Shown here: positions 19,679-30,813 of the stretch, one piece after another | Position numbering within the stretch: position 1 is the stretch's first letter | Layout of the letters: each line of letters begins with the position of its first letter | DNA from: Deltaproteobacteria bacterium | GTDB lineage: Bacteria > Desulfobacterota > Syntrophobacteria > BM002 | Assembly: GCA_019309045.1 (NCBI GenBank) | Contig: JAFDGZ010000004.1 | Span: 5,178-69,177 of the forward strand | Length of the DNA stretch: 64,000 bases | Direction: 5' to 3' | Notes under the pieces: model-generated | Databases searched by the model: none | Seen by the model: only the letters and a program-made list of their open reading frames with translations | What the model was told of the DNA's origin: nothing | Position numbers and translations under genes: made by a program

Positions 19679-21850
19679 ATGGATGTGAGGAGCATTGCGT
19701 TGACGGCCGCAGACCTGATGAGTGCTGAAGAAATTTTCCAGCAACAACTTAGCGACCTTCTCCACTGTGAACAGATCACAGTACTGCCGCCTTTTCCCGA
19801 CTATGACCTTCTCGGACGCAGTCGAGCCCCTAAGTTGCTGTTAAAGGCTGCAAATAAGGCCATTCTCACCCGAAAACCCACATATGATGAGAACCAGCAG
19901 TGGGCAGTCTTTCCCCTCATGCAAGAAGATAAAGTGCTCGGGCTGTTGCTTGCAGAAGATCTCGAGAGGAAGCTAGAAAATCCAGAAGAGCTCTCAGCCC
20001 TGGAAAGACTTGTAGCTCTCTGTCTCCATACATTGCAACTGGAGAAGCAGAGTGTCAGCGACAGTGAAACTGGCTTGTGGCGCCGGCAGACGCTCATGGC
20101 CGAACTTAGCCGCCTCATTGACCAGGCAGAAAGTGGCAGCAGGTTGACACCTAGAAGAATGCTCAGTGAGGAGTACTTTGCACCACACTTTACCCTGATA
20201 TGTTTGCATGCAAGTCCAACACCTGAACCCTGGGCAGGTGCCGGCCCTTTTTGGACAAGAATGGGACCCAGACTGGCGCAAGCATTGCCTGCAGGAGCCA
20301 TGGCAGCCCACCTCGGTGGAGGGTATGTGGCCATTCTCTGGCGCCAGGCCGGGGCGAGTGCTGTGCAAGCATGGACCCATGAGATTATTGAACACCTGCA
20401 GGAGGATGACTGCCAACCTAGGCGAGCTGATAGTGACTGGGCTGTGCATGCTGGCAGTGCTGAATTTCCTCAAGATTTCTATGACCTTGGCCCTATTCTC
20501 CCTTGGGAAAAAAATGACGGGGATAGAACAGCTGCAGCCTCTGAGGAAATAATCCACCGGGCGGTACTGGCGGTAGAAACTGCCTGCAAGACCCCGGGAG
20601 AGGTGGCTGTAACCTATCGCTCCATGCAAGAAAAAGGACTGGCGCCTCGGCCTGAAGAAATCGTTGAACAACGTCTGTCTGGCTTTCTGCAGGACGATGG
20701 GCCCTGCAGTCTGCTCCTGGTCAAACTTGACCAGTGGGAGGAATGGCAGCATCAGAAAGGAACTGCAGAGGCTGCTCGCAGAGCCAGAGAGGTACTCGAG
20801 AACTGTCGAAGTCCTGCTGTGGGGGGAACATTCTTCGAATGGCTCGGCGTGGATCGCTTCGTGGTGTTCTTTGACGGTCTGATTGAAAAAGATGCCTGCA
20901 CCAGAGCTGAGGCATTGCGCCGGATAGCGAAGACTACCCTGAACACCAGCGTGACTGTGGGGATAAGCGGCCATCCTTGTCCAGGATTTCCAAAGAGCGC
21001 CTTGTTGAAAAATGGACAAAAGGCGCTGGTGCACGCGGGTTACCTGGGTCCAGACGCTCAGGTGGTGTTCGATGCAGTGAGTTTGAACATCAGTGGAGAC
21101 AGGCTTTTTGAGACGGGCAGATTCGAACAAGCGCTGGCAGAGTTCCGGCAGGCTCTAATGCTTGACCCGGCAAACATCAATGTGAGAAACAGCCTTGCCG
21201 TGTGTCTGGCTCAAATGGGAAACATGGAAGAGGCTGTCAGGGAATTTGCCATAATCACTGCCTCTGATGAGGCTGACTTCATGCCGCACTACAACCTGGG
21301 GCGCGCTCTCTGGAGCCTGGGCCGTGAAAGAGAAGCCGAGGAGGCCTTGAAACGAGCCGCTGAACTGGCACCGCAAGAGCCTGGTACATGGTTCCAGCTG
21401 GCAACGCTTCAGGAACAGCAGGGCAGACTGGCCGAAGCCCTGCGCAACCTCGAGAAGGCAGTTGAACTGAAACCTCGCTGGCCAAAGGCATATCGACTGC
21501 TGGGGGAATGGTTGCTCCGCAAAGGAGCCCATGACAGAGCACTGCTCGCCTTCAAAAAGGCGCTGAAGCTCCACAGTGATGATGCCAGGGCGCTCAGCGG
21601 CCTGGCACTCATATACAGCGGACGGCAGGCGAATATGGAGGTAGCGCTCTCTCTCGCCAGGCGAAGCGTTGAACTGGAGCCGGACAATATCCTCATGTTG
21701 AAAAGGTTTGCAGGCTTGCTGCTGGAAAACCAGCAATGGGACGAAGCAGCACGGCAGTGCCGCCGGGCAGCCAAACTGGCGCCGGAGGACCGGGAGATCC
21801 AGCGGTTAATGGCACGCATCGAGGAGGGTCAACGGATGTCTACCGAATAG
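19679..21850 (+). CDS. Multidomain regulatory protein: N-terminal GAF-like region, two degenerate GGDEF-like domains, C-terminal TPR repeats (about 7)
   Basis: The first GGDEF-like domain has ETGLWRRQTLMAELSR, FTLICLHAS and AHLGGGYVAILW, i.e. GGGYV in place of GGDEF. The second has CSLLLVKLDQWEEW and FEWLGVDRFVVFF. TPR repeats run from about aa 470 to the C-terminus. Confidence 0.55.
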   Translation: MDVRSIALTAADLMSAEEIFQQQLSDLLHCEQITVLPPFPDYDLLGRSRAPKLLLKAANKAILTRKPTYDENQQWAVFPLMQEDKVLGLLLAEDLERKLENPEELSALERLVALCLHTLQLEKQSVSDSETGLWRRQTLMAELSRLIDQAESGSRLTPRRMLSEEYFAPHFTLICLHASPTPEPWAGAGPFWTRMGPRLAQALPAGAMAAHLGGGYVAILWRQAGASAVQAWTHEIIEHLQEDDCQPRRADSDWAVHAGSAEFPQDFYDLGPILPWEKNDGDRTAAASEEIIHRAVLAVETACKTPGEVAVTYRSMQEKGLAPRPEEIVEQRLSGFLQDDGPCSLLLVKLDQWEEWQHQKGTAEAARRAREVLENCRSPAVGGTFFEWLGVDRFVVFFDGLIEKDACTRAEALRRIAKTTLNTSVTVGISGHPCPGFPKSALLKNGQKALVHAGYLGPDAQVVFDAVSLNISGDRLFETGRFEQALAEFRQALMLDPANINVRNSLAVCLAQMGNMEEAVREFAIITASDEADFMPHYNLGRALWSLGREREAEEALKRAAELAPQEPGTWFQLATLQEQQGRLAEALRNLEKAVELKPRWPKAYRLLGEWLLRKGAHDRALLAFKKALKLHSDDARALSGLALIYSGRQANMEVALSLARRSVELEPDNILMLKRFAGLLLENQQWDEAARQCRRAAKLAPEDREIQRLMARIEEGQRMSTE

Positions 21851-23076
21851 TCTTTGGCAGCGAGGACTTCCAGGATGGCGCTTGTATGGTCTGCGCCGCG
21901 AGTCTCCAGCTCCAGTTCCACGCGGCTGACACCCAGGGGCAGGTGACGCCCCATCCGATCGTGGAAGATATGGATGATATTGCCGCCCTGCTGCGCAATA
22001 ATGTCCAGGAGATCCGCAAGAGATCCAGGTACGTCGGCGAGTTCTACTGAGAATCTGAGAATTCGGCCGCTTCTGAACAATCCCTGTCTGAGGATCTTGC
22101 CGAGCAAATGGCTATCGACATTGCCGCCGCTGACAACCAGGACCACCGATTTATTCTGAAGTTGGCGCAGTCTCTTGCCGAGCAGCGCCGCCAGGGGTAC
22201 TGCCCCGGAGCCTTCGGCAAGAACTTTTTTTCTTTCCAACAACTCCAGAATGGCAGCTGCTATTTGCTCTTCCTCTACTTCCACGAGTTCGTCTACCAAC
22301 TGTTCAATAATGGGAAAGGTCAGCTGGCCGATTTGTCTGACATTGATGCCATCGGCAATGGTTCGGGCTGCCGGCACTGCTACTGGTTGGCCGTGGCGCC
22401 GGGCTGCCAGCGCTGCAGGGCAGGCTGCTGTTTGCACCCCGATAATGGAGACCCGGGGACGCCTGGACTTCACTGCGGTGGCTATACCGGCGATCAGACC
22501 GCCGCCACCCACAGGGACCAGTATGGCATCCACTTCGGGGAGTTGCTCGAGGATTTCCAGACCAATGCTGCCCTGACCAGCAATGACCTCCTCGTCATCG
22601 TAGGGATGAATGAATCGGCGGCCCTCTTTTTCCAAGCGGCGAGCTATAGCCAGGCTCTCTGCAATTGTCTTGCCCGAGAGGATGACCTCACCGCCGTAGG
22701 ATCTGGTGGCGATCTGTTTGCTTATTGAGGCCCACTGGGGCATGACAATGGTTGCCGGGATACGCATGAGTTGTGCTGCAAGGGCCACACCCTGGGCATG
22801 ATTACCAGCGGAGGCAGCTACCACTCCCAGGGGCCCCAGCTCATCCTTGATGTTGACGAGCTTGTGATAGGCGCCGCGGAATTTAAAGGAGCCTGTCTTC
22901 TGGAGATTCTCCAGTTTGAGGTAGATCCGGGCACCAGATTGTCGACTCAATGAATTGGAGTAGACCAGAGGCGTCTTGCTTGCCACCTGGCTGAGTACGG
23001 CAGACGCTTGTTCAACCGCTTGCAGAGATACCATGGATGGCTGCTCCCGTGGAGAAGTGATAGCCTGCTTGCTCAT
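21829..23076 (-). CDS. ilvA: Threonine ammonia-lyase (threonine dehydratase), PLP-dependent, with a C-terminal ACT-like regulatory domain
   Basis: The PLP lysine motif is LENLQKTGSFKFRGA. The glycine-rich loop is VPVGGGGLIAG. Confidence 0.85.
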   Translation of the reverse strand: MSKQAITSPREQPSMVSLQAVEQASAVLSQVASKTPLVYSNSLSRQSGARIYLKLENLQKTGSFKFRGAYHKLVNIKDELGPLGVVAASAGNHAQGVALAAQLMRIPATIVMPQWASISKQIATRSYGGEVILSGKTIAESLAIARRLEKEGRRFIHPYDDEEVIAGQGSIGLEILEQLPEVDAILVPVGGGGLIAGIATAVKSRRPRVSIIGVQTAACPAALAARRHGQPVAVPAARTIADGINVRQIGQLTFPIIEQLVDELVEVEEEQIAAAILELLERKKVLAEGSGAVPLAALLGKRLRQLQNKSVVLVVSGGNVDSHLLGKILRQGLFRSGRILRFSVELADVPGSLADLLDIIAQQGGNIIHIFHDRMGRHLPLGVSRVELELETRGADHTSAILEVLAAKDYSVDIR

Positions 23077-23245
23077 AGCAGATCAGACAGCAGTCGTCAA
23101 ACTTGATTGTCTACCAGAGGAACAAGGTGGCAGACTCATTGGATCCTCTGCTCGACAAGGCGAGATTTTGGCCCAGTCGTGATCACGCTTTGCCACTCTT
23201 AACATATTGTTGGGGATTGTTCCGAATCAGAGAAAGGAGATGTGC

Positions 23246-24238
23246 ATGCAGCTGCGACATGCCAGAAGAAAGAGTGTACTGGGACTGTGGTTGGTATGTT
23301 TCGTTTTCCTTGGCAGTGGCTGTACTCTTGTAAATGTGAGTCTTTATCAGCCAGCCAGGCCTCTGGAAGAAAAAGTTGTCGAGGGGAAGGGACCAGGCAA
23401 GATTGTGCTGATTGACGTGAGTGGCATTCTCACCAGTAGGGAGAGTAGCAGCCTCGATCTCTTCCGGGAACGGGCCAGCGTGGTTGCCAGGGTCAAAGAA
23501 GAGCTCGATAAGGCGGCCGAGGATGAGGCGGTGAAAGTTGTGGTGCTCCGCATTCACACTCCTGGGGGCACAGTAACGGCCAGTGACCTGCTGCATCACG
23601 AAATCATAGAGTTCAAGAGAAAAACTAAGGCCAAAGTGGCTGCCCATCTCATGGGCGTGGCCACTTCAGGAGGGTACTACGTGGCTACTGCCGCCGACTA
23701 TATTGCGGCCCAGCCCACGAGCATCACAGGAAGCATAGGAGTGATAGCCCTGCAGTTCAATATCCAGGGATTGCTGGAAAAGATTGGCGTCGAAGGACAG
23801 TCAATAAAGTCAGGTGACAAAAAGGACATGTGGTCGCCGTTTCGTCGCCTGACTCCGGAGGAGAGAAAGATCCTCCAAGACATCATCAATGGCTACAAGG
23901 ACGCCTTTTTGGAGGTTGTCCGCAATGGAAGGCCGAGCATGACTTCGCAGGACCTGGCAACAGTGGCAGACGGCCGGCTAGTCTCGGCAAAGCAGGCTTT
24001 AGAACTCCATCTAGTGGACAAGTTGGCCTATTTGGAAGATACTCTCAACTGGGCTCGCAGTGCAGCAGCTGTGCCTGAGGCAAAAATTGTCCTTTATCGA
24101 CGACCAGGCACCTATGTCGATAACATCTATTCCCTGTCAACCATGGCTGAAGAGTCCTGGCTGCGACGGTTGCAACAGGAAGCGCCCTGGCAACAGCAAG
24201 CAGATACTCCTCTGTTTATGTACGTATGGCTGCCCTAG
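23246..24238 (+). CDS. sppA: Signal peptide peptidase SppA (36K type, S49 family)
   Basis: The S49 motifs are VVLRIHTPGGTVTASD and HLMGVATSGGYYVATAAD...GSIGV. An N-terminal TM anchor is present. Confidence 0.8.
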   Translation: MQLRHARRKSVLGLWLVCFVFLGSGCTLVNVSLYQPARPLEEKVVEGKGPGKIVLIDVSGILTSRESSSLDLFRERASVVARVKEELDKAAEDEAVKVVVLRIHTPGGTVTASDLLHHEIIEFKRKTKAKVAAHLMGVATSGGYYVATAADYIAAQPTSITGSIGVIALQFNIQGLLEKIGVEGQSIKSGDKKDMWSPFRRLTPEERKILQDIINGYKDAFLEVVRNGRPSMTSQDLATVADGRLVSAKQALELHLVDKLAYLEDTLNWARSAAAVPEAKIVLYRRPGTYVDNIYSLSTMAEESWLRRLQQEAPWQQQADTPLFMYVWLP

Positions 24239-24562
24239 ACGTGCAAAGACAGACAGGCTGCAGCAATGGCAAATGAACCGTGGTCATGGCGGCCGCCAGC
24301 CCTGAATCTGCAGGGAGTACCTGGCTGGCGCGAGGTACTATCATGTTATTGCCGAGCACTCGGAGGGAAATATTGCCGGGAGAACTACCACTTCTCAAGG
24401 TGGCAGAACACGCCGACCAAGTCCTTCGATTCAGAAGTTCAATGACGAACTTATTCACTCAGTTAGTGCTGAGTGAGCAATTGCCTTGAGGTAAATCAGC
24501 AGCATACGTCACTGTGTTTGCGAATCGAAGCACTGAGCCAACTCCCGAGAAAGGAGTCGAAT

Positions 24563-25543
24563 ATGACCTTGCCTCATTTCGGTATAGAGGATTGTCGTAG
24601 TCTGGCAGAGTCATACGTCAAACCTTATCATGAGAATTATTTTGCCATGTACAGCAGTGTGCTGGGTGGGGTGGTTACTCATCCCTTTCTCATGACGGTT
24701 CCCATGGATGATCATATTGTCCATCGCGGCGACGGTGTTTTTGAAGTGTTCAAGTGCGTGGATGGTAAGTTGTACAATCTCCACCGTCACCTGGAGCGTC
24801 TTGAGCGCTCTGCCCGGGCTCTCTATTTAAGGCTGCCTGTTGGTCACGACGAGATGGTCAACTTGATTGTGGAGACCATTCGCATAGCAGCGGTGAAGGA
24901 TTGTCTGGTCAGGTTGTTCGTCTCTCGAGGCCCGGGTGGGTTTACTACCAATCCGTACGAGTGTCCACGTTCCCAGCTCTACATAGTAGCTTGCAGTCTA
25001 ATATCCCCTGCCGAAGAGGTGTACAGGACGGGAGTGAGTGCAAAGAGCAGTAGCATCCCCTCAAAGAAATCTTACTTTGCCAATATCAAGAGCTGTAACT
25101 ACCTGCCGAACGTCCTCATGAAAAAGGAGGCCGTGGATATGGGCGTGGATTTCACCATCTCTCTGGACGACAATGGCTTTCTCGGCGAGGGGTCCACGGA
25201 GAATATTGGTGTGGTGAGCAGGGATGGCCGGCTGAGATTTCCCAAATTTTCCCGCATCCTTCAAGGAACCACTGTAACGAGGGTTGCTGAACTGGCACAG
25301 CCTCTGGTAGAGCAGGGTGCTCTGAAGGAGGTGTTGTTTGAGGATATCACCCTCAGTGAGGCATACAGCAGTTCCGAGATGCTTCTTTTTGGCACTACCT
25401 TTGATATTCTTGCCATAACCACCTTTGATGGACACACGGTGGGTACTGGTAAACCAGGGCCGGTGTTTCATCTGCTCAAAGATCGGCTGGACCTGGATAT
25501 TCAGCACAACTCAGCTCTCCACACTGTGGTGTATCCAGAATGA
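24563..25543 (+). CDS. Aminotransferase class IV family protein (branched-chain/D-amino-acid aminotransferase or aminodeoxychorismate-lyase-like)
   Basis: Fold-type IV signatures: RHLERLERSARAL, LVRLFVSRGPGG, and an E...TENIG motif. The start at MTLPHFG has an AAAGGAG RBS. Confidence 0.75.
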   Translation: MTLPHFGIEDCRSLAESYVKPYHENYFAMYSSVLGGVVTHPFLMTVPMDDHIVHRGDGVFEVFKCVDGKLYNLHRHLERLERSARALYLRLPVGHDEMVNLIVETIRIAAVKDCLVRLFVSRGPGGFTTNPYECPRSQLYIVACSLISPAEEVYRTGVSAKSSSIPSKKSYFANIKSCNYLPNVLMKKEAVDMGVDFTISLDDNGFLGEGSTENIGVVSRDGRLRFPKFSRILQGTTVTRVAELAQPLVEQGALKEVLFEDITLSEAYSSSEMLLFGTTFDILAITTFDGHTVGTGKPGPVFHLLKDRLDLDIQHNSALHTVVYPE

Positions 25544-25603
25544 CAGCAGCAGAAAGGCTGGCAGATGAATGCTGGCAGCTCCCCGTCTTTGCCGGCAATT
25601 GAT

Positions 25604-25631
25604 TGACAAGGCCACGCCTGTGAGATAGTAA
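25604..25631 (+). promoter_or_regulatory. Candidate sigma-70 promoter (TTGACA -16/17- TAGTAA) upstream of gmhA
   Basis: A -35 TTGACA at 25604-25609 and a -10-like TAGTAA at about 25626-25631, some 90 nt upstream of the gmhA start. Confidence 0.35.
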
Positions 25632-25720
25632 CATGTTGGCTGCCATATCCTGAGTCAAACACTGCCTGGCCGCCGGCTGCCTGAATATGCCGCCATGAGA
25701 AGAGGGCCTACTGAAGCGCC

Positions 25721-26311
25721 ATGGATGAAATGACAGATATTGCCAGAAGAAGTCTCCTCGAGAGCATCCAGGCGAAAAAGCGATGTCTGGAACGAGGGCC
25801 GGCATCCCTGGTCCAGGCTGCTGCCGTAATTGTCGAGGCCTTTTATGAAGAGAATAAACTGATGATTTTCGGCAATGGGGGCTCGGCAGCAGACGCCCAG
25901 CACATCGCCGCTGAACTTGTCAACAGGTTCATGATTGAACGGCCGCCCCTGCCTGCCATGGCTCTTACCACTGACACTTCAATTCTGACGAGTGTTGGCA
26001 ACGACTATGACTTCAAAGACATCTTCGCCAAGCAGGTGAAGGCCCTGGGGGTAGCAGGGGATGTGGCCTGGGGCATCAGCACCAGTGGAACGTCTGCTAA
26101 CATTGTCGAAGCCCTGGTGGCAGCAAGGGAGAGGGGGCTGCGCACCATTGGCATGACCGGGCCTGAGGGCGGCAAGGTAGCAGAAGTTGTCGACGTTCTT
26201 ATCCAAGGAGAGGGCAGCAGTACTGCCAGAATTCAAGAGTGCCACATAACCTTCGGTCACATTATCTGCGAGCTGGTTGACTATCGACTATTTCAGAGAT
26301 TGGAAAGATGA
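25721..26311 (+). CDS. gmhA: Phosphoheptose isomerase (D-sedoheptulose-7-phosphate isomerase), SIS domain
   Basis: Strong collinear similarity to E. coli GmhA (FGNGGSAADAQHIAAEL; SVGNDYDFKDIFAKQV; GISTSGTSANIVEAL). Confidence 0.85.
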   Translation: MDEMTDIARRSLLESIQAKKRCLERGPASLVQAAAVIVEAFYEENKLMIFGNGGSAADAQHIAAELVNRFMIERPPLPAMALTTDTSILTSVGNDYDFKDIFAKQVKALGVAGDVAWGISTSGTSANIVEALVAARERGLRTIGMTGPEGGKVAEVVDVLIQGEGSSTARIQECHITFGHIICELVDYRLFQRLER

Positions 26312-27285
26312 TGAGCAAGCACGGCTCACCCCTGGATCCCATATCACTCGATGGAGTGCGAACCAGCCGACTCGAGAAGCGGCATTCAAAGGTATCTTTA
26401 CAGGCAGCTGGCCGACCCTGGACTGCAGGGGGCACCTTCAGAGAATTCCTGGCGCGACTGCCGCATATTCTTGCCGCTGAGAGTTTTCGCCAGGTTGTAG
26501 AGCGAGTTGTGCAGGCCAAGAGGCGCGGCGCTAGAGTGCTGCTGGGTATGGGGGCTCATCCTATCAAGGTAGGCCTGGGGCCAGTGATTGTAGATCTCAT
26601 GGAGCGCCGCCTGTTGGACGGGGTGGCACTGAATGGGGCGGGCATCATCCACGATGCCGAACTGGCGCTGGCCGGCCATACTTCAGAGGATGTGGCTGCT
26701 GCTCTGGTTGATGGCAGCTTTGGCATGACCGCTGATACTGCTGATTTTCTTAATGCAGCAATAAAGGGGGCCCGGGCAGTTGATGGCCTCGGCGCTGCAG
26801 TGGGCAGGGCCTTGTTGGCATCTGGTGCTCCTCATCTGGCGCAGAGTATTGTGGCTGCAGGTGCGCGACTGAACCTGCCAGTGACCGTTCATGTTGCGCT
26901 CGGTACGGACACCATCCACCTGCATCCCAGTGTGGATCCTGCTGCAACTGGAGCGGCCAGCCATCTTGACTTTCGAATCTTCGCCAGAGCTGTGTCCGGG
27001 CTCCAGGGGGGCGTCTACCTCAATGTTGGTTCTGCGGTGCTGTTACCCGAGGTCTTTCTCAAAGCGGTTACCCTGGTGAGAAATCTTGGCTATCAGCTTG
27101 ATGATCTTACCACAGTGAACATGGATTTCCACAGGCACTATCGTCCACGGGTAAACGTCTTGCAGAGACCCACCAGAGTGGGGGGCAGAGGAATAGAGCT
27201 CATAGGCCACCATGAGATTATGATTCCTCTGCTGGCAGCTGCTATCGTAGAGAGGATGGCCGGCGAGAACATGGCAGGCGGTTGA
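26308..27285 (+). CDS. Conserved enzyme-like protein with resemblance to the deoxyhypusine synthase (DHS/homospermidine-synthase-like) family; function unknown
   Basis: LDGVALNGAGIIHDAELALAG resembles DHS [20 protein letters not shown], and GGVYLNVGSAV resembles DHS MIILGGGVVKHH. The start overlaps the gmhA stop (ATGA). This assignment rests on memory-based motif comparison only. Confidence 0.4.
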   Translation: MMSKHGSPLDPISLDGVRTSRLEKRHSKVSLQAAGRPWTAGGTFREFLARLPHILAAESFRQVVERVVQAKRRGARVLLGMGAHPIKVGLGPVIVDLMERRLLDGVALNGAGIIHDAELALAGHTSEDVAAALVDGSFGMTADTADFLNAAIKGARAVDGLGAAVGRALLASGAPHLAQSIVAAGARLNLPVTVHVALGTDTIHLHPSVDPAATGAASHLDFRIFARAVSGLQGGVYLNVGSAVLLPEVFLKAVTLVRNLGYQLDDLTTVNMDFHRHYRPRVNVLQRPTRVGGRGIELIGHHEIMIPLLAAAIVERMAGENMAGG

Positions 27286-27411
27286 GACCATTTGAGCACT
27301 TGGTGCCAGAGATGAGGCCACCCTGTTTGATGGTAGACGGCGCAGGAAAGGTTGTTTTCTAGACTCTGGCAGGAAAAGTCAGCACAGGGAAGCTTGATGG
27401 GGGGCAGGGTA

Positions 27412-27789
27412 ATGAAAAAAATTGTTATCAGAACTGCTGATGTGGAGGCTGAGGCCGAATTGAACGACTCTCTGACTGCTGAGGCGGTCTGGCAGGCTCT
27501 CCCCATTGAGGCTACAGTCAATACTTGGGGTGAAGAAATATATTTCAAGATTCCTGTGGAGTGTGAACTGGAGGCGGATGCTCGTGAACTCGTGGAAAAG
27601 GGCGATCTCGGTTATTGGCCAACGGGGCAAGCATTCTGCATCTTTTTTGGCTCTACTCCTATAAGCTCTCCAGGAGAGATACGGCCGGCAAGCCCCGTCA
27701 ACGTCATCGGCCGGGTCTTGGACGATCCGGAGAAATTCCTCAACGTCGCAACCGGGAGCGCCATCCGGGTCGAAAGAGGAAATTCATGA
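27412..27789 (+). CDS. Cyclophilin-like superfamily small protein (PF04126-like), 125 aa, function unknown
   Basis: The N-terminus MKKIVIRTADVEAEAELNDSLTAEAVWQALPIEATVNTWGEEIYF matches the conserved pattern of cyclophilin-like proteins of unknown function. Confidence 0.5.
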   Translation: MKKIVIRTADVEAEAELNDSLTAEAVWQALPIEATVNTWGEEIYFKIPVECELEADARELVEKGDLGYWPTGQAFCIFFGSTPISSPGEIRPASPVNVIGRVLDDPEKFLNVATGSAIRVERGNS

Positions 27790-28000
27790 AATTCATGTCC
27801 ACTTGTTGCTCGGTGGCAGTTATGATAGAAGAAAAGACTGCCGATTTGTGGCCCTGTTCTTGGTGTGGGGTTGTGAACAGTTGAGCATCGAGGAAGAGGT
27901 CTTCGCTTTGAGCCGGTTTTTGCTTTGCCTTGCCCGGATCAGGGCAGGTAGCATCGCAGGTAGCATCTCAGCTGATACTTTGCTGTTTTAGGAGAAGGGC

Positions 28001-28234
28001 ATGCCTATTTATGAATATTATTGCAAGGGGTGTGACAGCCAGTTCGAGATTCTCGTCTTCCGATCCTCAGATCCAGTGGTCTGTCCTGGGTGCGGCACAG
28101 ACAAGGTGAATCGTCTCCTTTCTGTCTGCGGCTTCAAGAGTGGCGGGGACAAAGGTGCCGCCAGCAGCAGAATGGGCTCCAGCGCTGGCAGCTGCAGTGG
28201 TTGCACTGCCAGTAATTGCAGCAGTTGTCACTGA
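28001..28234 (+). CDS. FmdB-family zinc-ribbon protein with a Cys/Ser/Gly-rich C-terminal tail
   Basis: The start MPIYEYYCKGCDSQFE and a second CPGCG pair give the CxxC...CxxC zinc ribbon. The tail is SCSGCTASNCSSCH. A GGAGAAGGG RBS precedes the start. Confidence 0.8.
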   Translation: MPIYEYYCKGCDSQFEILVFRSSDPVVCPGCGTDKVNRLLSVCGFKSGGDKGAASSRMGSSAGSCSGCTASNCSSCH

Positions 28235-28259
28235 GAAGAGAGCCTTGGAGTCTAGGCCA

Positions 28260-29216
28260 ATGAGTGAATACCGGCGGCTGCGAATCGGCACCAGGGGCAG
28301 CGTACTCGCTCTGTGGCAGGCAAACTGGGTAAAGGCAGAACTGCTCGCTGCCCATGACGGCCTCACAGTAGATCTCGTTGCCATTAAGACCAAAGGTGAC
28401 AAGATAGTTGACGTTCCTCTGGCTCGGGTGGGCGGCAAGGGATTGTTTGTCAAAGAGATCGAAGAAGCTCTGCTGGACGGCAGGATTGATCTGGCTGTCC
28501 ACAGTGTCAAAGACATGCCGGCCGAATTGCCCCCCGGATTGCATCTGGCCGCTACTCCGACGAGAGACGACTGCCGTGACGCTCTTCTTTGCAAGAAAGG
28601 ATCTTGCCTGGCGGATCTGCCGCCCGGAGCTGTGGTGGGAACGAGCAGTCTACGACGAGCTGCCCAGCTATTGCACCAGCGGCCTGATTTCCATATCCAA
28701 ACCTTGAGGGGTAATGTGGACACCAGGCTGCGGAAGCTCGAAACAGAGGGATACGACGCCATTATTCTGGCAGCAGCTGGACTCCACCGCCTCGGTCTGC
28801 AAAGGGTCATTACGGAATACCTCGGGCCAGAGACAATGCTGCCGGCTGTGGGGCAGGGAGCCCTGGGCATCGAGACGAGGATAGATGATGCTGCCACCAA
28901 TGATATGGTGCAAGCGCTGGTCCACCAGCCAACCATGGCGGCGGTGAAAGCAGAACGCTCCTTTCTGCACAGACTGCAGGGGGGCTGCCAGGTGCCTATC
29001 GGCGCCCTGGCTTTGCTGGAGAACGGCAGGCTGGCACTTACTGGGATGGTTGCCGACTTGCAGGGTCGCCGTCTCATCCGCAGGAAACTGCAGGGTGAGG
29101 TTGCCGAAGCAGAACTCCTGGGAGCACAACTGGCAACAGAGATACTTGCTGGCGGAGGAGAAGAAATCCTTAAAGAGATATACGGTCAGGAGCAGAATTG
29201 CTCTGGAGCAAATTGA
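28260..29216 (+). CDS. hemC: Hydroxymethylbilane synthase (porphobilinogen deaminase)
   Basis: RIGTRGSVLALWQANWV, the K(T)KGDK motif, and GLFVKEIEEALLDGRIDLAVHSVKDMP are present. The start was set at MSEYRRLRIG. Confidence 0.9.
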   Translation: MSEYRRLRIGTRGSVLALWQANWVKAELLAAHDGLTVDLVAIKTKGDKIVDVPLARVGGKGLFVKEIEEALLDGRIDLAVHSVKDMPAELPPGLHLAATPTRDDCRDALLCKKGSCLADLPPGAVVGTSSLRRAAQLLHQRPDFHIQTLRGNVDTRLRKLETEGYDAIILAAAGLHRLGLQRVITEYLGPETMLPAVGQGALGIETRIDDAATNDMVQALVHQPTMAAVKAERSFLHRLQGGCQVPIGALALLENGRLALTGMVADLQGRRLIRRKLQGEVAEAELLGAQLATEILAGGGEEILKEIYGQEQNCSGAN

Positions 29217-29247
29217 GGACGACTGCAACGTTTTTGTGGACGCTTAG

Positions 29248-30813
29248 ATGAGGTTGTTCGGGTCCACACAGAGGAGTGCAAGAATCTTGAGTGTGCAGAA
29301 AGGCAAAGTCTATCTTGTGGGGGCCGGACCCGGCGATCCGGCCCTTATTACTTTAAAAGGTGTGGAGTGTCTGCGACAGGCTCAGTGCATTATTTACGAT
29401 TACCTGGCCAGCAAGGAGCTCCTGGAACACGCTGCCGATAATGCAGAAATAATTTATGTAGGCAAGCAGGCAGGGAGCCATGCCATGAGTCAGGAGGATA
29501 TCAATGCTCTGCTCATTGACAGGGGGCGCCATCAGGTAGTGGTGCGACTCAAGGGCGGCGATCCTTTTATGTTTGGCCGTGGAGGAGAGGAGGCCCAGGC
29601 GTTGGCTCGGGCAGGCATCAGCTTCGAAGTGGTCCCGGGGGTGACTTCTGCCATAGCGGTGCCTGCATATGCAGGCATTCCTCTGACCCATCGCCGGCAC
29701 AGTTCGTCAGTAGCCTTTGTTACCGGCCATGAAATGGCTGGCAAGGAGGATTCTGACATTCACTGGCCTGAACTCGCTACTGGTGTAGGGACTCTGGTGT
29801 TCCTCATGGGAGTGAAAAACCTGGAACATATTGCAGCCAGATTGCTGGCTGGCGGCAGAGAGCCCGGCACCCCCGTTGCGGTCATACGCTGGGGCAGCAC
29901 CGGTAAGCAGCAGACAGTCACCGGGTCCCTGGCTGACATCAGCGAGATTGCCTCTGCCAGTGGCATAAGACCGCCAGCCATCATTGTGGTGGGCGAGGTG
30001 GTGCAGCTGCGCTCTGAGTTGAACTGGTTCGAACAGCGCCCCCTGTATGGCAGGACCCTGGTGATCACCCGGGCGAGAGAGCAGGCAAGCGAATTCAAGA
30101 GACTGCTCGAGAACCTCGGGGCTCAGTGTGTGGAGTTTCCTACAATCAAGGTGGTGCCGCCTGACACTTGGGCGCCAGTCGATGAAGCAATCAAGGCGTT
30201 GCCACAACATCACTGGGTGTTGTTTACCAGTGTGAACGGGGTGGGCTATTTTTTTGAACGGCTCAGCCAACTGGGCGAGGATGTTCGGGCCCTTTACAGA
30301 AGAAAAATCGGGGCCATTGGTCCGAAAACAGCGGCAGCACTCAGTTCGCGAGGCCTTAGACTCGATCTGGTACCTGCAGAGTATCGCGCTGAGGCAGTGG
30401 TCGAAGAGCTGGGAGAAGAAGAGATTCGTGGGCGAAGGTTCCTCTTGCCTCGTGCTGCCAGAGCTCGAGAGGTCTTGCCTGAAAGGTTGCGGCAGCTGGG
30501 GGGCCAGGTAACGGTGGTGCCGGTGTATCAAACGATTCGTCCCGGACAGCAGGTGGCTGAAGTTCGCCAACTGCTCAGAGAGGGAACTGTTGACTGCCTT
30601 ACTTTTACCAGCTCTTCCACGGTGGAGAACTTTGCGGCCATGTTCCCAGGGGAGAACATGGCCGCCCTTGTCGGGGAGACGATGGTGGCCTGTATCGGCC
30701 CTATTACCGCTGAAACAGCAAGAAAACATGGCCTACAGGCAGGCGTCGTTCCTGATGACTACACTATTGAAGGACTTGCTGGCGCCATAGTCGACTATTT
30801 CAGCAAGAGCTGA
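29248..30813 (+). CDS. cobA-hemD: Bifunctional uroporphyrinogen-III C-methyltransferase / uroporphyrinogen-III synthase (CobA/HemD fusion)
   Basis: The N-terminal SAM-MTase is VYLVGAGPGDPALITLKG...GGDPFMFGRGGEE. The C-terminal HemD domain starts at about aa 255 (RTLVITRAREQASEF...). Confidence 0.85.
   Translation: MRLFGSTQRSARILSVQKGKVYLVGAGPGDPALITLKGVECLRQAQCIIYDYLASKELLEHAADNAEIIYVGKQAGSHAMSQEDINALLIDRGRHQVVVRLKGGDPFMFGRGGEEAQALARAGISFEVVPGVTSAIAVPAYAGIPLTHRRHSSSVAFVTGHEMAGKEDSDIHWPELATGVGTLVFLMGVKNLEHIAARLLAGGREPGTPVAVIRWGSTGKQQTVTGSLADISEIASASGIRPPAIIVVGEVVQLRSELNWFEQRPLYGRTLVITRAREQASEFKRLLENLGAQCVEFPTIKVVPPDTWAPVDEAIKALPQHHWVLFTSVNGVGYFFERLSQLGEDVRALYRRKIGAIGPKTAAALSSRGLRLDLVPAEYRAEAVVEELGEEEIRGRRFLLPRAARAREVLPERLRQLGGQVTVVPVYQTIRPGQQVAEVRQLLREGTVDCLTFTSSSTVENFAAMFPGENMAALVGETMVACIGPITAETARKHGLQAGVVPDDYTIEGLAGAIVDYFSKS

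Follow-up and report, generated by a model that had tools for sequence, protein, structure and literature searches.

Within a 64,000-nucleotide stretch of a Deltaproteobacteria bacterium genome (assembly GCA_019309045.1, contig JAFDGZ010000004.1; hereafter the window), the gene for the sedoheptulose-7-phosphate isomerase GmhA is translationally coupled to the gene for a 325-residue protein of the GSU2086 family (hereafter X), and it is this pair, not the four-gene cluster in which it was initially annotated, that is conserved across lineages. Very probably, X is a component of nucleotide-heptose and lipopolysaccharide (LPS) core synthesis, on account of natural gene fusions, adjacency to gmhA, LPS-core neighbours and a transposon phenotype in Geobacter that matches those of gmhA and hldE. 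The balance leans slightly towards the GSU2086 family being an unrecognised nucleotide-heptose enzyme on the fold of deoxyhypusine synthase (DHS) and the LOR-SDH proteins, which either replaces HldD non-orthologously or adds a step outside the textbook pathway. The best overall explanation, a gmhA-X pair in which X is a dedicated nucleotide-heptose component with a possible epimerase-type step, is put at about even chances. The family is already named in NCBIfam, as uncharacterised, so the gene itself is not new; what appears to be unreported in the available literature is that the association extends over at least four phyla, that Rosetta-stone fusions connect X to all the other pathway enzymes, and that the predicted fold is of the DHS/LOR-SDH type.

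Conservation of the gmhA-X pair

The gmhA gene (25721-26311, + strand, 196 residues) ends in a TGA codon at 26309-26311 that overlaps the first ATG of the X gene (26308-27285, + strand) at 26308-26310, inside ATGATGA. This translational-coupling junction, ATGATG(A) at 26308-26313 on the + strand, was read directly from the sequence and agrees with the overlap described in the initial annotation, whose four open reading frames were likewise all recovered in place on the + strand. The source annotation starts X at the second in-frame ATG at 26311, giving a 324-residue protein and a 1-nt overlap with gmhA, and overlaps of 4 nt or 1 nt were also seen in relatives (e.g. loci L086 and L171).

Judged by its sequence, the upstream member of the pair appears to be a normal GmhA-type isomerase, nearer to GmhA than to the paralogue DiaA. 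Its SIS domain (SIS_2) was matched at E 4e-29; its best NCBIfam matches were GmhA models, below their equivalog cutoffs (PRK13936, 221.2 vs 276; TIGR00441, 190.2 vs 209.45; DiaA, 157), and among PDB entries the Pseudomonas aeruginosa GmhA 1x92 (E 4e-51, 176 bits) ranked above the DiaA 2yva (E 3e-41, 144 bits). The GmhA paired with X in Mariprofundus ferrinatatus (L171, 9417-10004) also falls just under the cutoffs (252/276 and 207/209), and X-linked GmhA proteins may form a subfamily of their own.

Conservation was assessed over 80 GTDB genome loci, with X homologues at 53-67% identity, and 80 divergent metagenome loci, found with a profile whose lead sequence was a Zetaproteobacterial member (the hits being 36-42% identical to it), using a uniform criterion of gmhA directly upstream on the same strand and counting loci with enough upstream sequence. 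By this criterion gmhA directly precedes X at 48/66 genome loci and 30/58 metagenome loci (78/124 combined), down to approximately 37% identity and in Desulfobacterota, Nitrospirota, NC10 and Zetaproteobacteria, an adjacency far beyond chance and the outcome of a check in related genomes that had been proposed initially. When all neighbours in the genome set are considered, gmhA is dominant (52 loci, 49 at position -1), and the other recurrent genes are those for HemC (34), a 77-residue zinc-ribbon open reading frame (30, at position +1 or +2; cluster C2), SelA (29), CobA/HemD (27) and a TPR protein (24). The cyclophilin-like gene (9), the aminotransferase (6), SppA (5) and IlvA (3) were all confined to the closest relatives. 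The main neighbour in the metagenome set is again gmhA (40 of 80), with a stand-alone HldE-C-type adenylyltransferase at 10 loci, WaaF-type heptosyltransferases at 5 and, more rarely, the HldE kinase domain (3), full HldE (1) and GmhB (1); the cyclophilin-like gene lies downstream of X at 1/80. SelA, the TPR protein, SprT-like, DinB, Mfd, IspF, CysS and UvrB were considered as functional partners and rejected as housekeeping synteny. There is also a recurring Nitrospirota-type order, gmhA-X-SprT-like-dinB-hldC-mfd (L089-L168, e.g. L102, L098 and L129), in which DNA-repair genes split hldC from gmhA-X.

The conserved unit is the translationally coupled pair and not four genes, because gmhA lies upstream of X at most of the loci counted, whereas few of the genome loci, and practically none in the divergent set, have the aminotransferase or the cyclophilin-like gene beside the pair. 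The initial annotation had proposed that the aminotransferase, GmhA, a DHS-like aminoalkyl transferase and the cyclophilin-like protein form a module for an amino- or aminobutyl-modified sugar or a polyamine, and the co-orientation of the four genes, the short gaps between them without convincing terminators and the predicted DHS fold of X would all suit such a module. However, the neighbourhood statistics already largely refute it, the aminotransferase is BCAT-like and adjoins ilvA, and X fails DS family membership and, by manual mapping, has no conserved lysine at the DHS catalytic position. Nor were any polyamine, amine or eIF5A-related enzymes seen among the fusion partners or recurrent neighbours examined, so that aminobutyl-transfer or polyamine chemistry finds no backing, and the four-gene module is regarded as highly improbable.

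Fusions, heptose loci and the Geobacter operon

Members of the GSU2086 family occur as natural fusions with several heptose-pathway domains. The commonest partner is an adenylyltransferase domain alone, the fusion of X to a cytidylyltransferase-like domain being found in P0127, P0131, P0142, P0171 and P0268, and in P0131 the partner scores above the equivalog threshold of the D-glycero-beta-D-manno-heptose-1-phosphate adenylyltransferase model (199 vs 181.5). Fusions to a SIS domain occur in both orders, SIS-X and X-SIS (P0144, in which the partner is GmhA-like, and P0228); X is joined to PfkB in P0231, to PfkB and a cytidylyltransferase, i.e. HldE, in P0183, and to a DUF89/ARMT1 phosphatase and a cytidylyltransferase in P0173. 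There were no fusions to a short-chain dehydrogenase/reductase (SDR) among the multidomain members examined. In P0130 (525 residues), a 205-residue N-terminal domain with no Pfam match is fused to X.

The loci carrying X tell a similar story at the level of gene order, and include hisB-HAD (GmhB-like)-[X-adenylyltransferase]-PfkB-GT4, LpxA-X-HldE, X-HldA-WaaA, WaaF-X-HAD, [X-HldE fusion]-Glyco_transf_9 and, in the complete genome of M. ferrinatatus, lpoA/rsmI/yraN-gmhA-X-BON-hldC. The adenylyltransferase near X in NC10, Nitrospirota and Zetaproteobacteria is of the stand-alone HldC type and has no kinase next to it. Replacement of GmhB by X was rejected, as Geobacter, L087, L158 and the Chloroflexota plasmid CP069395.1 all carry GmhB-like HAD phosphatases together with X.

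Two further clusters carry X in other settings. On pDCAR1 of Solidesulfovibrio carbinolicus (L169, 10339-17944), a reversed-order HldE-X-SIS arrangement ([adenylyltransferase-PfkB]-X-SIS) lies inside a glycan cluster and is followed by three radical SAM proteins, with a split transketolase, methyltransferases and nonulosonic-acid genes (pseF, neuB-like) in the flanks, and this may be a modified-heptose-glycan pathway. The Chloroflexota plasmid (L170, 11029-14459) carries HAD hydrolase-X-PfkB (heptose-kinase-like)-SIS without a nucleotidyltransferase, in a phylum generally regarded as lacking LPS. Upstream of this cluster are genes for a GntR regulator, a sugar ABC transporter and Gfo/Idh/MocA oxidoreductases, as well as deoC, a context that looks catabolic.

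In Geobacter sulfurreducens, gmhB (GSU2084), hldE (GSU2085), GSU2086 and gmhA (GSU2087) form an operon, and Geobacter annotators have already remarked on the "sugar biosynthesis operon" context of GSU2086. In the available part of the published transposon-sequencing (Tn-seq) data, insertions in hldE (-3.1), GSU2086 (-3.2) and gmhA (-3.7) gave equal electrode-growth defects, which were not shared by gmhB, and polar effects were, according to the authors, largely removed by read-through from the transposon (PMC5585712). Within the literature available here, no paper joins heptose to deoxyhypusine synthase, and GSU2086 is uncharacterised and mentioned only in a Tn-seq table.

These observations bear on the possibility, raised initially, that the linkage is fortuitous, X being unrelated to heptose and merely syntenic with gmhA. 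The window and most Desulfobacterota loci are surrounded by unrelated housekeeping genes (selA, the TPR protein gene, hemC, cobA/hemD), in keeping with such a linkage. However, gmhA and X stay adjacent in four phyla whose neighbourhoods otherwise differ, fusions to five distinct domains of the heptose pathway are independent of one another, and the Geobacter phenotype agrees with those of gmhA and hldE; a fortuitous linkage is contradicted by the fusion data and retains almost no credibility.

Family, fold and candidate role of X

A full-length match places X in NCBIfam NF052581, "GSU2086 family protein" (397.5 bits vs a cutoff of 250, model positions 1-301 of 301), the family of the Geobacter type locus GSU2084-2087, with which the window shares the gmhA adjacency. 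The profile search thus leads to a family named without an assigned function and not to another well-characterised one, as the initial description of the protein as a member of an uncharacterised family would suggest, and the motifs quoted for it are present in its translation. More than 8,000 clusters at 90% identity were matched in a word-indexed search, and an exhaustive search returned 2,590 representatives at 50% identity with E <= 1e-3, 512 of them with E <= 1e-30.

The initial likening of X to deoxyhypusine and homospermidine synthases holds for the predicted fold and not for family membership. An AlphaFold model made from 35 homologues is confident (pLDDT 85, pTM 0.84) and has a DHS-like three-dimensional fold. 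The only Pfam match of X is a sub-threshold one to DS (PF01916; 16.5 bits vs a cutoff of 27, E 0.005, residues 57-125, profile positions 13-82 of 288), and the best member of the family reached 33.4 bits, covering just profile positions 13-163. Across 30 diverse members, 15 touch DS and 22 touch ArgZ-like_C_2nd (PF21570), always at the first Rossmann beta-alpha-beta unit; the window X itself had no match to PF21570 at E <= 0.01. Sequence searches of the PDB (phmmer with X, and a 35-sequence profile) gave nothing significant and no DHS match better than E 1.7, and aligning the family profile with human DHS (sequence = 1rlz_A) by hhalign gave 0.1% probability over 40 columns. Deoxyhypusine synthase was therefore rejected as an identity for X, on the sub-cutoff DS score and the lack of significant similarity to solved DHS enzymes. 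Given the partial DS and ArgZ-like matches and the absence of a significant match to solved structures, X is a separate, uncharacterised branch of the DHS/LOR-SDH Rossmann superfamily. The Zetaproteobacterial members P0377 (M. ferrinatatus, L171, 10001-10954), P0376 and P0271 are labelled 'deoxyhypusine synthase (family protein)' by NCBI/UniRef, which looks like over-annotation from the partial DS match.

Identity between X and deoxyhypusine or homospermidine synthases is 12-16%, with the N-terminal part alone aligning, and approximately 60 residues align by sequence with LOR/SDH-type domains (the C-terminal ornithine cyclodeaminase domain of AgrE/ArgZ, 6lrf; Methanococcus maripaludis 3c2q; PF21570). 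The genomic context of X is heptose and LPS rather than eIF5A or polyamines, and sugar phosphate rather than the arginine or ornithine of ArgZ/AgrE. Among 108 family representatives reaching down to approximately 37% identity, approximately 39 positions show conservation of 90% or more, the invariant residues including His84, Lys87, His115, Asp116, Glu118, Thr125-Ser126-Glu127, His195, Asp221, Ser242, Glu248, Lys252, Asp273, Tyr278, Arg279, Arg287, His302 and Glu303, a His-, Arg- and Tyr-rich set quite different from that of DHS. In the model, most of these lie in loops just after predicted beta-strands, as expected of an active-site crevice. Human DHS carries Lys329, which forms the enzyme-imine intermediate, in the loop before the last strand. 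The conserved lysines of the GSU2086 family are K87 and K252 only, and segment 273-300 of X holds conserved Y278, R279 and R287 and no conserved lysine; manual mapping by motif and strand order thus points to the absence of a conserved lysine from the loop matching that of Lys329.

This pattern of conservation also bears on whether X is an enzyme at all. An alternative is that it is a non-catalytic, NAD- or ADP-heptose-binding subunit that controls or assembles GmhA and HldE. A scaffold of this kind could well be translated together with GmhA and fused to a variety of pathway enzymes, as X is; ADP-ribose-like ligands bind in the DHS/sirtuin-type crevice, and ADP-heptose belongs to the ADP-sugars. 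However, the many conserved His, Asp, Glu, Tyr, Lys and Arg residues following beta-strands are typical of an active site, and tandem X-X proteins suggest an obligate oligomeric enzyme like DHS, so that a regulatory or scaffolding subunit is considered unlikely. P0125 (679 residues) and P0175 (582 residues) resemble such tandem duplications, which are consistent with an obligate oligomer.

Current descriptions of the ADP-heptose pathway have four or five enzymes, leave no gap and do not include X. The partners of X are exactly the enzymes of the canonical GmhA-HldE-GmhB-HldD pathway, to which X would add a fifth member, or in which it would stand in for one, in Desulfobacterota, Nitrospirota, NC10, Zetaproteobacteria and others. 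It replaces none of the isomerase, kinase, phosphatase or adenylyltransferase, since all of these co-occur with it in the same operon or polypeptide. Probing approximately 165 loci (+/-8-10 kb neighbourhoods of X) with Escherichia coli HldD returned generic SDRs only, with nothing in the window, and the SDR gene that M. ferrinatatus has in the vicinity of X encodes a GalE-like protein (TIGR02197, 106 vs 275). As the other four activities co-occur with X and HldD was never found beside it, the likeliest specific role is NAD-dependent C6 epimerisation (D,D- to L,D-heptose) in place of HldD, although as a precise assignment this is tentative.

Under this proposal, X would be made together with GmhA and dedicated to nucleotide-activated heptose for the LPS inner core, would keep the dinucleotide-binding crevice seen in the modelled fold, would probably act on a heptose phosphate or ADP-heptose in a redox-neutral step that uses bound NAD(P)+, and would epimerise C6, converting D,D- to L,D-heptose, which elsewhere is the job of the SDR enzyme HldD. 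In the closest structural relatives (DHS, AgrE/LOR-SDH), NAD+ is bound in a crevice at the strand ends. At places that appear to correspond, X has small residues (G82-A83; N108-G109-A110-G111; G241-S242-A243) and acidic ones (D116, E118, E303), and its added His/Tyr/Lys/Arg set seems suited to acid-base catalysis and phosphate binding.

The proposed functional analogue, HldD/RfaD (TIGR02197), has an unrelated fold, and X matched no SDR or Epimerase model in Pfam or NCBIfam. Nevertheless X takes operon positions that hldD holds in other organisms: it is found within a heptose operon of four genes and also beside waaF, the latter being likened to the E. coli hldD-waaF-waaC operon. In the heptose clusters of Helicobacter pylori and Campylobacter jejuni, hldD lies between gmhA and hldE, as X does in Geobacter. 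Both would be NAD(P) enzymes, the analogy being drawn by elimination and from the local absence of hldD.

A number of points weigh against the explanation as a whole. The absence of HldD holds just for the +/-8-10 kb neighbourhoods of X, and organisms without HldD may simply use D,D-heptose. The NAD binding and activity of the family are predictions from fold and context. There are no hldE, gmhB or waaC/F genes within the 64-kb window, and its selA/hemC context is housekeeping synteny that carries no functional information. Lastly, the Chloroflexota plasmid cluster indicates that an ADP-heptose substrate is not obligatory; its lack of a nucleotidyltransferase, together with the very tight GmhA link, hints that the substrate may be a heptose phosphate instead of a nucleotide sugar.

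The same evidence leaves some room, albeit less than for C6 epimerisation, for X being another tailoring or redox enzyme (a dehydrogenase, a C2, C3 or C4 epimerase or an anomerase) that makes a heptose variant or acts on sedoheptulose-7-phosphate or heptose-7-phosphate beside GmhA. The tightest and most ancient link of X is to GmhA (translational coupling, SIS fusions), it occurs in the non-LPS glycan and catabolic-looking clusters of pDCAR1 (with radical SAM and nonulosonate genes) and the Chloroflexota plasmid, and its modelled fold is that of an NAD enzyme. However, X also adjoins the core LPS genes LpxA, WaaA and WaaF, where just the standard heptose would be expected, and the Geobacter mutant phenotype is one of whole-pathway loss, which fits an obligatory step better.

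More doubtful still is a role as a heptose phosphomutase (7-phosphate to 1-phosphate), giving a three-enzyme route of GmhA, X and adenylyltransferase that would parallel the isomerase-mutase-nucleotidyltransferase route to GDP-mannose. The frequency of the adenylyltransferase domain alone as a fusion partner, the stand-alone HldC-type enzymes without an adjacent kinase in NC10, Nitrospirota and Zetaproteobacteria, and the many conserved His, Arg and Lys residues that could handle phosphate are all in keeping with such a route. However, a mutase would be redundant where X shares an operon or polypeptide with a kinase and phosphatase (Geobacter, L087, P0183, P0231, P0173 and the Chloroflexota HAD-X-PfkB-SIS cluster), and to our knowledge there is no phosphomutase with the DHS/LOR-SDH fold.

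If X is a nucleotide-heptose enzyme as proposed, Desulfobacterota, Nitrospirota, NC10, Zetaproteobacteria and other lineages would have an ADP-heptose pathway that departs from the textbook one; the co-translation with GmhA and repeated kinase, phosphatase and adenylyltransferase fusions imply, for many environmentally dominant phyla, a step that the accepted scheme lacks or has in another form. This pathway supplies the LPS inner core and the innate-immune agonist ADP-heptose, and is a target for antibiotic adjuvants; its intermediates are innate-immune agonists. The known chemistry of the fold, until now amine oxidation (DHS, ornithine cyclodeaminase), would also widen to sugar phosphates or nucleotide sugars, and public records that label GSU2086-family proteins 'deoxyhypusine synthase' would have to be corrected.

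Surroundings of the pair in the window

The window is identical to a contig of a Deltaproteobacteria/Desulfobacterota metagenome-assembled genome (P0001 at 100% identity). Unlike in the Geobacter locus, the pair stands apart from hldE and gmhB here, within a selA...hemC syntenic block to which the aminotransferase and cyclophilin-like genes are additions particular to the lineage. The genes run in the order selA-TPR-(ilvA, sppA, AT4)-gmhA-X-(CypL)-ZnR-hemC-cobA/hemD, where AT4 is the aminotransferase, CypL the cyclophilin-like gene and ZnR the zinc-ribbon open reading frame, and the genes in parentheses are lineage-specific insertions. A promoter and terminator scan at the locus gave counts no better than those of shuffled sequence, and an Rfam scan of 23000-29500 found no RNA element.

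Upstream, the pyridoxal-phosphate-dependent aminotransferase (24563-25543, + strand, 326 residues) lies outside the conserved unit. Its fold-type IV assignment, like the SIS and PF04126 assignments of the initial annotation, was upheld by Pfam (Aminotran_4, PF01063, E 5e-43, 148 bits); it falls below every NCBIfam equivalog cutoff (BCAT, DAAT, ADCL), the best match being the BCAT subfamily model (176 vs 363), and its closest PDB structures are archaeal-type BCATs (5e25/5cm0, E 2e-40). Since it adjoins ilvA and resembles archaeal-type BCATs, the simplest reading is ordinary branched-chain amino-acid metabolism. Relative to most Desulfobacterota loci, ilvA (21829-23076, - strand), sppA (23207-24238) and the aminotransferase are inserted between the TPR gene and gmhA (region 19679-24238), and the 723-residue TPR open reading frame and ilvA are convergent, overlapping by approximately 22 nt (21829-21850).

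Downstream of X, the cyclophilin-like gene (27412-27789, + strand, 125 residues) is a lineage-specific insertion whose product matches PF04126 at E 4e-45 (152.9 bits vs a cutoff of 27, profile positions 1-120 of 120), and whose only PDB relatives are TM1367 and 2nnz, both uncharacterised. The zinc-ribbon open reading frame (28001-28234, + strand, 77 residues, CxxC...CxxC) follows; it is FmdB-like (MPIYEYYCKGC...CPGC...), lies between the cyclophilin-like gene and hemC here and between X and hemC in relatives, and is uncalled in the source annotation. The hemC gene and cobA/hemD fusion (28257-30813, + strand; Pfam Porphobil_deam, TP_methylase, HEM4) represent conserved downstream synteny that implies no functional link to X. 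The start of hemC (28140-29216) is ambiguous, the longest open reading frame beginning at a GTG at 28140 and overlapping the zinc-ribbon frame, while the source annotation starts it near 28260.

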